DNA of 13,933 nucleotides from UHGV virus genome UHGV-0092352; one strand, written 5' to 3'. This document shows, piece after piece, positions 1-4,979 of this stretch. The notes under the pieces were generated by a model. It saw nothing but the letters and a program-made list of their open reading frames with translations, had not been told where the DNA came from and did not search any database. Source of the DNA: a virus. The translations under genes and the position numbers were made by a program. The first letter of the stretch is position 1. Every line of letters begins with the position of its first letter.

Positions 1-1776
1 ACTGTTGTTGTTGAACCAGAATATTACTTTGTCATTGCGCTGGCCGGACAGTCAAACGGCATGGCGTATGGTGAAGGCCTGCCGCTGCCGGAGACATATG
101 ACCGTCCGGACCCGCGTATTAAACAGCTGGCGCGTCGCAGTACGGTGACGCCGGGTGGTGCCGCCTGTAAATATAACGACATCATTCCGGCAGACCACTG
201 TCTGCATGATGTGCAGGATATGAGTAACCTGAATCATCCTGAAGCGGACCTTAATAAAGGGCAGTACGGTTGTGTGGGGCATGCTCTGCATGTTGCCAAA
301 AAGCTGCTGCCGTTTATGCCTGCGAATGCGGGTATCCTTCTTGTTCCATGTGGCCGTGGCGATTCGGGATTTACTGCGGGAGCAGAGGGCGCGTTTAATG
401 AGGCGTCGGGTGCGACAGCGGGCTCTTCCCTGTGGGGGGTGGATAAACCGTTGTATCGTGACCTGGTCAGCAGAACGCGTGCAGCCCTGAAGAAAAATCC
501 GAAAAACGTGCTGTTGTCGGTGATCTGGATGCAGGGGGAAAAAGATGTCAGTTCGGGGAGACATGCAGAACACAATGCGCTTTTCCTTGCCATGGTAAAT
601 CAGTACCGTGCAGACCTGGCAGATATTGCAGACCAGTGTATTGGCGGGACAACGTCCGGCGTCCCGTGGATTTGCGGTGACACCACGTACGACTGGAAGG
701 CGAAGTATGCAGTGCAGTATGAGGCGGTTTACGGAGGCTATAAAGGCAAGGCGGCGCAGAATATTCACTTTGTGCCGTTGATGACGGATGAGCATGGTGT
801 GAATGTGCCGACAAACGAGCCGTCAGAAGATCCGGACATTATCCCGGCGGGATACTATGGCGCTGCGTCACGCACTGCCAGTAACTGGACGTCAGCCGAT
901 CGTAAAACGCACTTCAGCTCCTGGGCGCGAAGAGGCATTGTTTCAGATCGGCTGGCAGGAGAGATACTGGTGCGAGCCGGGCGTTTGCTGCCGTTCCTGA
1001 GCGGGCAGTCTGCACCGCTGGCGACCACGCCAGCCTCCACGGGGGATGCACAGTCTGGCTCTGCGGGTCCGACGCAACAGCAGGGTGCAGGTATTTCTGC
1101 AGGCGGTCATACTGAAGCCGTAACAAGAATGGTGGCCGGATATGATGCGAACAGTGGCAGTGGTGTATGGACAGAGCAGCAGTGGAATGCGTCCGGTGGT
1201 AAAGGCACTGTGACGGATGACAGTGGCAGGAAGGCGCTGCGACTGGAAAAACAGCCGGGTAAACTGACCTCCTGGAAGATGTTCCGTACTGTTGCGGTGG
1301 AGGAGGCAAAAAATCTTCTCAGTAAGGGAGGTGAAATTGCCGTGCGGTTTAAGATCCCGGAGGGTGTCGAACTGGTTAACGGTCAGTTTGTCTTTGGTCT
1401 GTACTGGCCGGTGTCGCAGTGGGCGTCAGGCGCGACAGCAAACAGCATGCTGGCGTCCTTCTTCCTTCAGACGGATGCATCAAATCTGAATCTGATGTAC
1501 CACAAGGGGGAGTCGAATGCGCAACTGGGCACATTTGGGGCATTTGACCATAACTGGCATACAGTTGTTTTCCGCTTTGCGGGAAATAACAGCGAAAAAG
1601 TGGTGCCGGTGATTGATGATGCAGAGCAGTCTGCGTTTGACCTGGTGATGTGGACAAATGATGGCTTTACAGCAGATACGCTGACGCTGACAGATATCAC
1701 GGGGGCAAAAGCGACGTATCCGATACTGCTTGATACGGTCACAGTCAAAGTTAACGAAAGCCGGGCATCATCATAA
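1..1776 (+). CDS. 5'-truncated prophage late-region SGNH/SASA-type esterase (NanS-p-like sialate O-acetylesterase) with C-terminal lectin-like domain
   Basis: Frame 1 is open from base 1 with no stop before the listed ORF, so the gene begins upstream of the window. The first codons give ...VIALAGQSNGMAYGEG, the GQSN catalytic block of SASA/SGNH esterases. Stop TAA at 1774-1776. Position directly upstream of S/R/Rz matches where nanS-p sits in Stx-type prophages (from memory). Confidence 0.7.
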   Translation, partial: TVVVEPEYYFVIALAGQSNGMAYGEGLPLPETYDRPDPRIKQLARRSTVTPGGAACKYNDIIPADHCLHDVQDMSNLNHPEADLNKGQYGCVGHALHVAKKLLPFMPANAGILLVPCGRGDSGFTAGAEGAFNEASGATAGSSLWGVDKPLYRDLVSRTRAALKKNPKNVLLSVIWMQGEKDVSSGRHAEHNALFLAMVNQYRADLADIADQCIGGTTSGVPWICGDTTYDWKAKYAVQYEAVYGGYKGKAAQNIHFVPLMTDEHGVNVPTNEPSEDPDIIPAGYYGAASRTASNWTSADRKTHFSSWARRGIVSDRLAGEILVRAGRLLPFLSGQSAPLATTPASTGDAQSGSAGPTQQQGAGISAGGHTEAVTRMVAGYDANSGSGVWTEQQWNASGGKGTVTDDSGRKALRLEKQPGKLTSWKMFRTVAVEEAKNLLSKGGEIAVRFKIPEGVELVNGQFVFGLYWPVSQWASGATANSMLASFFLQTDASNLNLMYHKGESNAQLGTFGAFDHNWHTVVFRFAGNNSEKVVPVIDDAEQSAFDLVMWTNDGFTADTLTLTDITGAKATYPILLDTVTVKVNESRASS

Positions 1777-1781
1777 CCGGC

Positions 1782-1818
1782 AAAAAAAACCGCCAGCGGC
1801 AGGAACGGAAGCTGGCGG
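1782..1818 (-). terminator. Intrinsic terminator read on the minus strand (stem CCGCCAGC / GCTGGCGG followed by U8)
   Basis: Perfect 8-bp GC-rich stem at 1790-1797 / 1811-1818 with a 13-nt loop. The A8 run at 1782-1789 on the + strand becomes a U8 tail on the minus strand. On the + strand the stem is followed by AGGTAATCCC, so it is not a + terminator. Confidence 0.5.
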
Positions 1819-1915
1819 AGGTAATCCCAATGGAGAATGTAAAGAAAAGATGCTTTCGTATATCGGTTTTTTAAATGAAAACAGTTCTCATTGTCAACCA
1901 TAACGGTAAGAAACT

Positions 1916-2110
1916 ATGACATTTGTTCATCAGGTGATGCTGTACTTCTGTACGGCGGTCTGTGTGCTGTATCTTCTTTCGGGTGGGTACAGGGCAGTGC
2001 GCGATTTCTGGCGCAGGCAGATTGATAAAAGGGCCGCAGAGAAAATCAGCGCCAGTCAGTCAGCCGGAGCAAAAACAGAAGCCCCACTCATTCCGGAACA
2101 ACCTTCTTAA
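1916..2110 (+). CDS. Small hypothetical membrane protein (64 aa; N-terminal hydrophobic helix, charged tail)
   Basis: ORF MTFVHQVMLYFCTAVCVLYLLSGGY... with one predicted TM segment. Weak SD (TAAGAAA) before ATG 1916; an alternative start is the internal ATG at Met8. Double stop TAATAA. Confidence 0.4.
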   Translation: MTFVHQVMLYFCTAVCVLYLLSGGYRAVRDFWRRQIDKRAAEKISASQSAGAKTEAPLIPEQPS

Positions 2111-2135: not shown

Positions 2136-2426
2136 ATGTCAGAAATAAAATCGCTGGTCACTGCTGAGGCAGTGAAGGAAGTCCTGCGCTCTGAAGAAGT
2201 CCGGAGCGCACTGAAACAGCAACTTCGGCAGAACCTTGAGGCGCGTCTTGATGCAGAAGTGGATTCAATTCTGGATGAATTGCTTGGTGCACAGCCGGAA
2301 CCATCCCCGGAACTGCTTCCGGAACCACAGGCGGAAGATGTCACCACGGAAAATGGTGATATTCAGCCGGAGTCACCGGTGACGGATATGACAGACACAC
2401 AACCCGAACCGGGCACAATGCTGTAA
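2136..2426 (+). CDS. Hypothetical acidic protein (96 aa; helical N-terminus, Pro/Glu-rich tail)
   Basis: ATG at 2136 (MSEIKSLV...) preceded by GAGAAA 5 nt upstream. The listed ORF start at 1962 is upstream read-through in the same frame. A terminator-like hairpin follows 10 nt after the stop. Confidence 0.5.
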   Translation: MSEIKSLVTAEAVKEVLRSEEVRSALKQQLRQNLEARLDAEVDSILDELLGAQPEPSPELLPEPQAEDVTTENGDIQPESPVTDMTDTQPEPGTML

Positions 2427-2501: not shown

Positions 2502-2717
2502 ATGTACCAGATGGAAAAAATCACAACAGGTGTGTCATACACCACGTCAGCGGTGGGAACGGGCTACTGGTTCCTGCAGTTGCTGGACAGGGTTTCCCCG
2601 TCTCAGTGGGCGGCAATAGGCGTGCTGGGGAGTCTGCTGTTTGGGCTGCTGACATATCTGACTAACCTGTATTTCAAAATCAGAGAGGACCGTCGTAAGG
2701 CAGCGCGGGGAGAGTAA
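2502..2717 (+). CDS. S: Pinholin, S21-like class II holin with dual-start motif (holin/antiholin)
   Basis: 71-aa protein [10 protein letters not shown]... with two TM segments ([14 protein letters not shown]; [18 protein letters not shown]) and a charged C-terminus [11 protein letters not shown], closely resembling phage 21 / 933W S as I recall it. Two in-frame starts, ATG 2502 and ATG 2511 (Met1/Met4). GGAG 7 nt upstream of 2502. Confidence 0.85.
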
Positions 2718-2721
2718 GGCG

Positions 2722-3252
2722 ATGAATAAACAATACAAACTGGTTGTTAAAGGGATAAATAATTACCCGGATAAGATTACTGCTACTGTGGCACTGGAAA
2801 TTGGTGGGTATCCGTCACTGTTGTTGCCATATGTGGCGATTAGTCTTGACCGTACTGAAGGTGCCACGCTGGAGTTTTACGAAGCTGAGGCGAAAAAACA
2901 GGCGAAGCAGTTTTTCATGGATATTGCTGCCGCTTTATGTGAAGGGGATGAGCAGTCGCCGGAAAAGCGCCCCATAATTTTAGAGGCGCAGGATGTGTTG
3001 ATAACCTACAGAGGAAAACTACCGGGAATAATTACGGGTTCTCTGAAGACGCCACCGACGGCATTGCGGTCAGAAAACGATGATATTGAATCACGCATTG
3101 AAAAACTGGAGTGCTATATCGCTGAATTGAAAAAAAGCATCCCAACAAAAAATGAGGTGCTTGCAGCAGATGAAATGAAAGAAACTATTCTTGATCGCGC
3201 GGCGCATCTAAGCTGCGCTTCACTGTTGAAAGAGCATCTTCAGCAGCCTTGA
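2722..3252 (+). CDS. Hypothetical protein (176 aa) inserted between holin and endolysin; function unknown
   Basis: ATG 2722 lies 4 nt after the S stop, with GGGAGAG 8 nt upstream (translationally coupled position). GC content is clearly lower than flanking phage genes (about 40% in the first 120 nt by hand count). No motif I recognise; N-terminal beta-like region and C-terminal helical region. Confidence 0.6.
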   Translation: MNKQYKLVVKGINNYPDKITATVALEIGGYPSLLLPYVAISLDRTEGATLEFYEAEAKKQAKQFFMDIAAALCEGDEQSPEKRPIILEAQDVLITYRGKLPGIITGSLKTPPTALRSENDDIESRIEKLECYIAELKKSIPTKNEVLAADEMKETILDRAAHLSCASLLKEHLQQP

Positions 3253-3485
3253 GGAATCTTTTATCATCACGAGCAACTGTCTTTGGTATTTCTTTAATTA
3301 GATGTTCCATTTCGGCGATCAGGTAATCTGACACAGCGTTATTTTTACTTAGTGCATCCATTGCTTTGATTATCTTTGCGAGGCAGCCATCTCGCATTGT
3401 TGAGTTTACGCCAGTGCCCACCACTGGCGGGCTGAAGACTTAACATATCCAGGGATTCGGAACCGATAAATCCTGATAAATATCC

Positions 3486-4019
3486 ATGAACGCAAAAATC
3501 AGATACGGCCTGTCGGCTGCCATTCTGGCGCTGATTACTGCAGGCGCATCTGCGCCTGACATTCTCGACCAGTTTCTGGATGAAAAAGAAGGTAACCACA
3601 CCACAGCATACCGTGATGGTTCTGGTATATGGACCATCTGCCGTGGTGCCACCCGGGTGGATGGTAAGCCTGTCGTCCCCGGCATGAAGTTGTCGAAGGA
3701 AAAATGCGACCAGGTTAACGCCATTGAGCGTGATAAAGCGCTGGCGTGGGTGGAGAAAAACATCAGAGTGCCGCTGACCGAACCCCAGAAAGCGGGGATC
3801 GCGTCATTCTGTCCGTACAACATTGGTCCCGGTAAGTGTTTCCCGTCGACGTTTTATAAACGAATTAATGCAGGCGATCGCAGGGGGGCGTGTGAGGCGA
3901 TTCGCTGGTGGATTAAGGACGGTGGCAGAGACTGCCGTATTCGCTCAAACAACTGTTACGGTCAGGTATCCCGTCGTGACCAGGAGAGCGCGCTGGCGTG
4001 CTGGGGAATCGACAGATAA
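3486..4019 (+). CDS. R: SAR endolysin (T4-lysozyme-like muramidase, GH24) with N-terminal signal-anchor-release domain
   Basis: N-terminus MNAKIRYGLSAAILALITAGASAP is a Gly/Ala-rich SAR helix. Catalytic E-8aa-D-5aa-T spacing is present (EGNHTTAYRD...GSGIWT). Resembles 933W / phage 21 R from memory. No recognisable SD precedes ATG 3486. Confidence 0.9.
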   Translation: MNAKIRYGLSAAILALITAGASAPDILDQFLDEKEGNHTTAYRDGSGIWTICRGATRVDGKPVVPGMKLSKEKCDQVNAIERDKALAWVEKNIRVPLTEPQKAGIASFCPYNIGPGKCFPSTFYKRINAGDRRGACEAIRWWIKDGGRDCRIRSNNCYGQVSRRDQESALACWGIDR

Positions 4020-4511: not shown

Positions 4512-4979
4512 ATGAGCCGTGTTCTGTGTGTGGTGATTATTGTCCTGGCGGGTGGCTGTGGTGCGCTGTGGCTGGCAACAGACCATTACCGCGATAACGC
4601 CATCACCTACAAAGCGCAGCGCGATAAAAAAGCCAGAGAGCTGGAGCTGGCAAACGCCACCATTACTGATATGCAGGTGCGCCAGCGCGATGTTGCTGCG
4701 CTCGATGCAAAATACTCGAGGGAATTAGCCGATGCGAGAGCTGAAAATGAAACTCTGCGTGCTGATGTTGCCGCTGGTCGTAAGCGCCTGCGGATCAACG
4801 CCACCTGCTCCGGTACCGTGCGTGAAGCCACCGGCACCTCCGGCATGGATAATGCAACCGGCCCCCGACTGGCAGACACCGCTGAACGGGATTATTTCAC
4901 CCTCAGAGAGCGGTTGATGACAATGCAGAAGCAACTGGAAGGGGCGCAGGACTATATCCGCACTCAGTGTATTAACTAG
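4512..4979 (+). CDS. Rz: i-spanin Rz (inner-membrane spanin subunit)
   Basis: 155 aa with N-terminal TM ([19 protein letters not shown]) and a coiled-coil periplasmic domain. SD GAAAGAGAG upstream. Typical position after the endolysin; Rz1 is embedded in the +1 frame. Confidence 0.85.
4732..4917 (+). CDS. Rz1: o-spanin Rz1 (outer-membrane lipoprotein, nested within Rz)
   Basis: [20 protein letters not shown] has a lipobox (VSAC) followed by a proline-rich mature region ([36 protein letters not shown]), very similar to lambda Rz1 as I recall it. Entirely inside Rz in a different frame. Confidence 0.8.

Follow-up and report, generated by a model that had tools for sequence, protein, structure and literature searches.

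Esr41 (EcOnc14) is an Hfq-binding small RNA (sRNA) of the enterohaemorrhagic Escherichia coli (EHEC) island SpLE1 and is described in the literature as an EHEC-specific SpLE1 RNA. In its variant M1 the GGG after CCAU was changed and compensated in chuA, and in M2 CCCUCC was changed and compensated in bfr (GCGGAGGGA) (Waters et al., 2017, PMC5286369, Table EV8); the seeds of Esr41 are therefore UUCUCCAUGGG (chuA/cirA) and UCCCUCCGCC (bfr). Other Hfq-associated RNAs are encoded in prophages. PasA and PasC lie between a sialic-acid esterase gene and a holin gene in the order '> < >' (Pearl Mizrahi et al., 2021, PMC8550237, Table S6), a placement also given by Zhu, Shabalina & Storz (2026, bioRxiv 10.64898/2026.05.13.724894), in whose data Rfam Esr41 matches were frequent near PasD and were left unanalysed. 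EcOnc32, from Sakai prophage Sp3, was the strongest terminator-bearing novel peak in Hfq cross-linking and analysis of cDNA (CRAC) and ran at about 112 nt on a Northern blot (Tree et al., 2014); EcOnc32, PasA and PasC are Northern-validated Hfq-binding sRNAs, and EcOnc52 is an Hfq-CRAC peak. Here we analyse a stretch of 13,933 nucleotides from UHGV virus genome UHGV-0092352 (the window), in which positions 1782-1897 of the minus strand are probably a self-contained gene for a base-pairing, terminator-ended sRNA of about 81 nt, belonging to the lineage of Esr41 and EcOnc32 and acting in trans in lysogens.

Anatomy of the minus-strand unit and its relation to Esr41

A sequence-only reading of the window had described an intrinsic terminator on the minus strand (stem 1790-1818, then U8), a TTGACA hexamer upstream of it and, running from one to the other, a transcript of 60-80 nt. 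Both elements are present (Table 1). The terminator was found by direct reading, by RNAfold, which has the hairpin in both the minimum free energy (MFE) and the centroid structures, and by a pattern scan, where the inner stem came out shorter because loops were limited to 8 nt. Its parts on the minus strand are a 5' arm CCGCCAGC (1818-1811), a loop (1810-1798), a 3' arm GCUGGCGG (1797-1790) and the U8 tract (1789-1782), which begins 6 nt past the esterase stop codon (1774-1776). Seven of the eight stem pairs are G-C, and a U-tract follows on the minus strand only; read on the plus strand, the stem is preceded by A8 and lacks a T-run behind it. All variants seen have the T-run on the minus-strand 3' side of the hairpin. 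There is no AUG on the minus strand of the predicted sRNA, as read from the fold sequence. At the 5' end, the pairing GAAAG...CUUUC is kept with other loops in the alleles of PhiR12_3 and P13374 (read by eye), and Esr41 has an unrelated hairpin at this position.

At gathering thresholds there was no Rfam match over the whole window. In a permissive scan Esr41 (RF02676) was the best family, its full-length model aligning to 1782-1856 on the minus strand with 23 bits and E 0.08; the same model gave 108.6 bits for true Esr41, 32.3 for EcOnc32 and 28.1 for the allele of phage 933W. The relationship was also seen with a profile hidden Markov model (HMM) built from six phage alleles with Esr41 excluded: searched with nhmmer against about 1.1 Mb of fetched loci, it retrieved the Esr41 locus (L003:2466-2572) from the -35 to the U-tract with E 1.3e-4. 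Global alignment of the window unit with Esr41 gave z = 8.3, and across an 11-allele alignment the -35, a T-run in the spacer, TTCTCCAT and the terminator were invariant. Shared ancestry with Esr41 is thus detectable over the whole gene, from promoter to terminator, by nhmmer, the 11-allele alignment and the pairwise z. A pattern search of IMG/VR with TTCTCCAT-N(6-16)-CCGCCRG was too unspecific, returning 120 loci that were mostly chance, of which the HMM filter left 10 true loci. In IMG/VR there is also an allele that combines UCCUCCAUGGGG (CCAUGGGG) with a GCUGGCG-U8 terminator and stands midway between Esr41 and the phage alleles.

The Esr41 locus has the layout of the window: TTGACA, a spacer of 17/18 nt, an A/T-rich -10 (TTATAT/TATATA, with the spacing of the window), a 5' hairpin, CAUUUUCUCCAUGGGG, UCCCUCCGCC running into the stem, and U7. 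Common to both RNAs are UUCUCCAU followed by GGG, a CCUCCGCC block leading into a CCGCC(A/G)GC...GCUGGCG stem, and a tract of U7-8. They differ in length (74 nt for Esr41 versus about 81 nt), in the 5' hairpin, in one extra U between CCAU and GGG, and in the terminator loop. By these alignments the unit and the validated Hfq-binding sRNA Esr41 are divergent homologues. The expected RNA of 60-80 nt between TTGACA and terminator accordingly gains support from this homology, which extends from the -35 to the U-tract, and from the position that the unit shares with PasA, PasC, EcOnc32 and EcOnc52.

Seeds, predicted targets and the plus-strand mini-ORF

The window counterparts of the two Esr41 seeds are AUUCUCCAUUGGG and CCUCCGCC. 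UUCUCCAU, the core of the chuA/cirA seed, is identical and invariant, with the GGG offset by one U in the window, and in the 11-allele alignment it is the only fully invariant transcribed block outside the terminator. Against the chuA site, whose wild-type form ...CCCAUGGAGAAUCG was inferred from a mutagenic primer and not from a genome, the window RNA was predicted to pair with -19.7 kcal/mol, a value reached by none of 300 shuffles, through nine contiguous pairs plus GGG/CCC; for Esr41 the value was -24.3. EcOnc32 was joined to the ribosome-binding site (RBS) of ECs0632 in a hybrid from RNase E cross-linking, ligation and sequencing of hybrids (CLASH), and the duplex is predicted to form via the homologous block with -24.7 kcal/mol. 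The ECs0632 read holds a Fur box and ...GUGGAGGAUGAUAUGGAUAC; from the read sequence and the N-terminus of EntC, we take ECs0632 to be the entC leader. The window allele shows no special match to that site, a difference that suggests allele-specific sets of targets around a common core.

The sequence-only reading had also pointed to a plus-strand GGAGG (1817-1821) and an ATG at 1830 opening a 14-codon open reading frame (ORF) that ends at 1874, followed by an ORF of 64 amino acids at 1916-2110. All of these are there to be read, although the mini-ORF does not hold up as a gene. Across alleles its length is 4, 14, 24 or 25 codons, with only M-E-(N/K) kept, and its Shine-Dalgarno (SD) sequence varies as GGAGG, GGTGG or GGTGTGAG; the products are MEKK in 933W, Sp5 and POCJ13, MEKM in Esr41, 14 amino acids in the window type and 24-25 amino acids in the others. 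The plus-strand complements of the window seeds are ATGGAGAAT, at the mini-ORF start, and GGCGGAGG, at the SD. Given this variation from 4 to 25 codons, the mini-ORF is not a gene, and its pattern of conservation is best read as the mirror image of an RNA seed and not as that of a coding sequence. Its stop codon lies 41 nt before the ATG of the 64-amino-acid ORF (12-73 nt in other alleles), a gap that makes translational coupling in the manner of hok/mok impossible.

Hypothetical ORFs have been deposited over or beside the sRNA gene in related phages, namely 933W orf24 (L004:896-1021) and a reverse-strand ORF in PhiR12_3 (L007:1013-1147). Short ORFs called in the spacer downstream of the esterase gene, 933W orf24 among them, are probably spurious artefacts of an antisense sRNA, which should serve as a warning in annotation.

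Two promoters of the lineage hold sequences resembling a Fur box. In the window a 19-mer, GACAATGAGAACTGTTTTC (1879-1897, minus strand), lies over the -35 and the spacer and matches at 13/19, a score reached by 2.2% of shuffles and by 0.6% of the 56-nt windows of this sequence; we regard it as a weak lead. In the EcOnc32 promoter (L214:2183-2201), AATAATGATAATGTTTATA matches GATAATGATAATCATTATC at 15/19, which none of 1000 shuffles reached. Such 19-mers in sRNA promoters suggest control by iron and Fur, fitting the iron-related targets of Esr41 and EcOnc32.

The esterase/lysis junction, its sRNAs and the surrounding genes

Comparison with mapped prophage sRNA loci, which the sequence-only reading had recommended, placed the unit in the same slot and orientation as PasA, PasC, EcOnc32 and EcOnc52. 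The window sRNA has the sialate-esterase gene on one side and the lysis genes on the other; it converges with the former, and its terminator adjoins the esterase stop codon. PasA and PasC in E2348/69, a strain of enteropathogenic E. coli (EPEC), and EcOnc51/52 in Sakai are identical to it in position and orientation, EcOnc52 occupying the slot in Sakai Sp4 just as the window sRNA does here. For PasC the esterase gene ends at 1290830 and the sRNA 3' end is at 1290832; a second unit, downstream of PasA, adjoins the esterase stop codon with its 3' end in the same way. In E2348/69, PasA and PasC alike show a TTGACA -35 followed by a weak A-rich -10, and their RNAs measure 79-85 nt. As to their sequences, the covariance model (CM) R1 gave E 0.5-2.9 on PasC, PasA and the second unit in prophage PP2, and nhmmer found no match on the sRNA strand at PasA or PasC, only terminator-like matches on the opposite strand with E 4-5. 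Global alignment of PasA/PasC with the window showed a modest excess (z ~5.5), and the published PasA seed GCCAGCACC, which overlaps the terminator, is absent from the window RNA. PasA and PasC are occupants of the same slot and not proven homologues.

The second unit of E2348/69 PP2 (L001:2366-2466, minus strand) is a PasC-like arrangement of TTGACA and terminator downstream of PasA, with a U-tract that ends at the esterase stop codon. This end coincides with the reported 'minor 236-nt' PasA 3' end (743264), and the minor species may stem from a second tandem sRNA gene, or from transcription that reads through into one.

EcOnc32 stands closer. It lies (L214:2079-2206; NC_002695 901578-901705, minus strand) between a relic of about 30 nt of the esterase 3' end and the holin gene, and reads TTGACA...CAUUUCUCCACGGGGAAUAUCCCC...terminator. 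Like the window unit it is convergent, its terminator adjoins the last ~30 nt of the esterase relic upstream of the holin gene, and it has a TTGACA promoter and a CAUUUCUCCACGGGG block. It is also Esr41-like in sequence, Esr41 being its best Rfam family (32 bits, E 0.008), with E 0.0037 for our own CM and E 6.9e-4 for nhmmer. It differs from the window in a longer, PasC-like terminator (GCCAGCGCAG...), in a C for U in the seed (CUCCAC) and in having no DUF1378 or DUF826 downstream. In the main texts of the papers searched, no mention of a family relation between EcOnc32 and Esr41 was found. By slot and sequence together, the Esr41/EcOnc32 lineage gains a new allele in the window element, at a site already known for sRNAs.

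Three IMG/VR contigs (L158, L160 and L161: 2355-2480, minus strand) with the same esterase and DUF1378 genes show yet another allele type in the slot, their spacer having an unrelated unit with the terminator GCCAGCGCC...GGCGCUGGC-UCUUUUUU.

The unit from promoter to terminator is present in 947 of 5,426 complete E. coli genomes, in 1,993 copies (median 2, up to 7) and annotated in none; it is also found in 306 phage records, among them Stx1a, Stx2a and Stx2c (Shiga toxin) phages, 933W, Shigella POCJ13 and the O104:H4 Stx2a phage P13374. Such conservation shows the unit to be no chance arrangement. An identical copy (100%) lies in E. coli 2015C-3121 (NZ_CP027340.1 4366624-4366739), and the nearest copy surveyed for expression is of the 933W type, in Sakai Sp5 (1272087-1272201); the 933W/Sp5 type is 82-84% identical to the window. 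Similarity of the window to most Stx phages (~82%) starts precisely where the sRNA gene has its 3' end, at 1782, and the gene is thus the mark of a mosaic junction at which esterase alleles meet the module downstream. Upstream of 1782, the 3' part of the esterase gene (DUF6645 domain) is a different allele from that of most Stx phages.

The window corresponds to the late region of a lambdoid prophage of the Stx type, with packaging genes after Rz as judged by position and size. In E. coli chromosomes with identical or nearly identical DNA, annotated as "SASA family carbohydrate esterase | DUF1378 | DUF826", the spacer is without any RefSeq feature. Between holin and endolysin (2722-3485) a DUF1327 ORF is inserted together with about 230 nt that hold only a doubtful minus-strand ORF. 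In the late operon between DUF826 and holin, at 2436-2474, there is a strong hairpin on the plus strand that resembles an intrinsic terminator, of 12 pairs and then TTTGTTGTTG; its presumed role is to protect the lysis genes from transcription lacking Q modification. A similar hairpin and T-run precede the holin gene in E2348/69 PP2, and recur in the same upstream sequence at the PasC locus with no holin gene after them.

Table 1. Features of the minus-strand unit and of the surrounding late region (window coordinates)
Feature	Position	Strand	Basis and remarks
-35 hexamer TTGACA of the sRNA promoter	1892..1897	-	Read directly; TTGAC kept in 11/11 aligned alleles including Esr41 and in 32/32 IMG/VR variants
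Weak A-rich -10	1868..1874	-	TTAAAA 1874-1869 (17-nt spacer) or TAAAAA 1873-1868 (18-nt spacer); sole candidates
Predicted sRNA, ~81 nt	1782..1863	-	Start ~1863/1861 placed from promoter geometry and alignment with the Esr41 5' end; 3' end in U-tract
5' hairpin GAAAG-CAUC-UUUUC	1844..1857	-	MFE fold
Seed core UUCUCCAU	1830..1837	-	Within wider pairing stretch AUUCUCCAUUGGG, 1838-1826
Second seed-like block CCUCCGCC, anti-SD	1814..1821	-	Runs into terminator stem; counterpart of Esr41 UCCCUCCGCC
Intrinsic terminator	1782..1818	-	8-bp stem, 13-nt loop, U8; likely also the Hfq-binding 3' module
14-codon 'mini-ORF'	1830..1874	+	GGAGG 1817-1821; judged not a gene, mirror image of sRNA seeds
SASA/DUF6645 sialate-esterase (NanS-p-like) gene, 3' part	61..1776	+	Pfam and RefSeq annotation of identical loci; sRNA convergent
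DUF1378 small membrane protein, 64 aa	1916..2110	+	PF07125, E 4.5e-35; phrog_494
DUF826	2136-2426	+	
Phage-21-type holin	2502-2717	+	
DUF1327 ORF, 176 aa	2722-3252	+	phrog_2091 (function unknown)
Endolysin	3486-4019	+	
Rz	4512-4979	+	

Weighing the explanations and comparison with known systems

The anatomy, homology, synteny and seed conservation described above, and the lack of conservation of the mini-ORF, fit a simple course of events for a trans-acting sRNA. Placed between the NanS-p-like esterase gene and the DUF1378-DUF826-holin genes and transcribed against the late operon, the RNA would be made in the lysogen from its own sigma-70 promoter and be stabilised by Hfq via the hairpin and U8 tail. 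Single-stranded UUCUCCAU(U)GGG, possibly together with CCUCCGCC, would pair in trans with the SD or start-codon regions of host mRNAs, blocking translation and recruiting RNase E. The likeliest targets would be iron- and haem-uptake messages, as for Esr41 (chuA, cirA, bfr); the plus-strand GGAGG, ATG and mini-ORF would be by-products of anti-SD and anti-AUG seeds. Transcription of the window allele, its Hfq dependence and its targets are what we infer here.

A number of results weigh against this account. A promoter scan of 1500-2800 called no promoter, because neither -10 candidate (TTAAAA/TAAAAA) has the conserved final T, and here the caveat of the sequence-only reading about a weak -10 was correct. 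The covariance check that it had advised did name Esr41 as best family, but with a score of 23 bits against a gathering score of 102. Stability of the whole-molecule fold is unremarkable (z = -1.7), and MAFFT/RNAalifold on the 11 alleles gave no compensatory pairs and recovered only the terminator; the covariation is uninformative because the alleles are too similar, and MAFFT also misaligned the loops of POCJ13 and P13374. By eye a lone compensatory change was seen, in POCJ13, where the loop-closing pair at the top of the stem is U-A for C-G with both sides changed. Pairing of the window RNA with the bfr site was not above shuffles (12%), nor was that of the window allele with the entC site, where no special match was seen, and the chuA site has the origin in a primer stated above. 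The Hfq-CRAC peaks listed by Tree et al. (2014, Table S2) do not include the Sp5 copy, nothing lies at its coordinates among the listed rows of the RNase E-CLASH tables of Waters et al. (2017), and the copy is not in the list of Stx-phage sRNAs of a 2021 review; in the literature searched we found no expression evidence for the window allele or for the 933W/Sp5 type.

Two of these points, the weak -10 with no promoter called and the missing Sp5 copy in the Hfq-CRAC peak list, would equally suit a window allele that yields no functional sRNA, the hairpin serving as terminator, insulator or 3'-end stabiliser at the junction of esterase and late genes and TTGACA being a decayed or inactive promoter relic; the GC stem would fold in a plus-strand transcript too. 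We think this improbable. All alleles keep the -35 and, at the same distance from it, the A-rich -10, in an architecture shared with the expressed Esr41 and EcOnc32, and the U-tract is always on the minus-strand side, with A8 before the stem on the plus strand and no T-run after it. Nor would a bare terminator explain why UUCUCCAU, inside the unit, is better conserved than the sequence on either side of it. That same concentration of conservation on a short seed, and not on the whole complementary stretch, bears on a mainly cis-antisense role, which would be compatible with action in trans: by base-pairing with mRNA of the esterase or of late read-through, the RNA would induce cleavage by RNase III or RNase E. 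Its consequence would be to uncouple the esterase from the lysis genes or to damp leaky expression of the latter in lysogens, with the late transcript sponging the sRNA on induction. Any plus-strand read-through RNA would be fully complementary, convergent sRNAs recur at moron junctions of late operons (PMC4104026), and PasA was recovered with the 3' ends of adjacent esterase mRNAs in EPEC by RNA interaction by ligation and sequencing (RIL-seq; PMC8550237). However, nothing in the sequence specifically requires a role in cis and Esr41 works away from such a context, and we consider both the cis-antisense mechanism and the consequence drawn from it unlikely.

The antisense small RNA was one half of the arrangement that the sequence-only reading had put forward; the other half, a type I toxin-antitoxin module, has fared less well. 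In such a module a cis-antisense antitoxin would stop translation of the mini-ORF, or block a standby site in the esterase or late mRNA, thereby silencing DUF1378 as the supposed toxin. The ORF at 1916-2110 does have 64 amino acids, one N-terminal hydrophobic helix and a charged tail, and the sRNA is perfectly complementary to the stretch 53-134 upstream of the ORF on read-through transcripts, a geometry loosely like that of tisB/istR-1. The likeness to Hok-like toxins suggested for it found no support in family searches: the ORF is a full-length DUF1378, the only Pfam family above cut-off and of 'unknown function' in PHROG, it has no NCBIfam match at all, and neither Pfam nor NCBIfam ties it to Hok/Gef, Ldr, TisB, Ibs or Sho. 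Rfam scans of the window, gathering and permissive, found no Sok or other antitoxin RNA family, and membership in a hok/Sok-type system was rejected for want of any protein or RNA family match, neither toxin nor antitoxin falling into a described family. The sRNA ends at ~1863, ~53 nt short of the DUF1378 ATG (1916), and does not overlap the RBS, so that the locus has neither an antisense overlap of a toxin initiation region nor a coupled leader ORF; the mini-ORF, unconserved in length and SD, stops short of that ATG by the 12-73 nt given above, and the promoter scan shows no plus-strand promoter-like site upstream of DUF1378. As for linkage, among the 80 closest DUF1378 loci of IMG/VR a window-type sRNA occurs in 77, where it ends 16 nt from the ATG, and a different terminator-bearing unit in the other three, but a shared recombination module would explain so tight a linkage equally well; the loci of Esr41, EcOnc32, PasA, PasC and EcOnc52 are without adjacent DUF1378, and trans targets of Esr41 are proven. 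DUF1378 is conserved much better than the spacer and is an independent late gene outside the sRNA unit, and as the loci compare, the constant link is to the esterase 3' end and not to DUF1378. A toxin-antitoxin module is accordingly very improbable.

Returning to the trans-acting sRNA, a wider and more speculative proposal, which we would rate as possible but doubtful, is that the esterase/lysis junction is an exchangeable sRNA cassette. Its Esr41-like alleles (window, 933W/Sp5, P13374, EcOnc32) would be phage-borne, possibly Fur-controlled, RyhB-like regulators, each using the shared UUCUCCAU core, with a flank that varies, to retune how the host acquires iron and haem (chuA, cirA, entC and others); the Esr41 gene of SpLE1 would be a stranded copy, and the late transcript would switch the RNA off on induction.

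What is new is that divergent Esr41-like genes with the same seed core lie unannotated at the esterase/lysis junction of many lambdoid prophages, including the reference Stx2 phage 933W/Sp5 and the O104:H4 outbreak phage. Such genes are present in ~17% of complete E. coli genomes, and several copies per genome are frequent. Provided that they are expressed, they would give Stx and related prophages, beside AsxR, one more regulator of iron and haem uptake and of colicin sensitivity in the host, and copy number and allele type could contribute to strain differences in Hfq-dependent virulence regulation. Control of iron and haem uptake by a phage through an Esr41-like sRNA is a prediction open to experiment.

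Among known systems, AsxR and AgvB resemble the window sRNA as short Hfq-binding RNAs with their own promoters, directed against the Q-dependent late operon of Stx-type prophages, and AsxR also feeds into haem use (chuS). They differ in their site, between stx or a moron gene and the esterase gene, in their unrelated sequence and in acting as sponges of other sRNAs; the window has no Rfam match to either. With hok/mok/Sok and tisB/IstR-1 the window shares a short terminator-ended antisense RNA near a small hydrophobic ORF and complementarity over the start of a short upstream ORF. Unlike in those systems, the mini-ORF and the 64-amino-acid ORF neither overlap nor couple, the mini-ORF is not conserved, and relatives of the sRNA occur without the ORF. 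Esr41 itself stands alone on SpLE1 near iha, with no remnant of esterase or DUF1378, whereas the window copy is set in an intact lambdoid late region.

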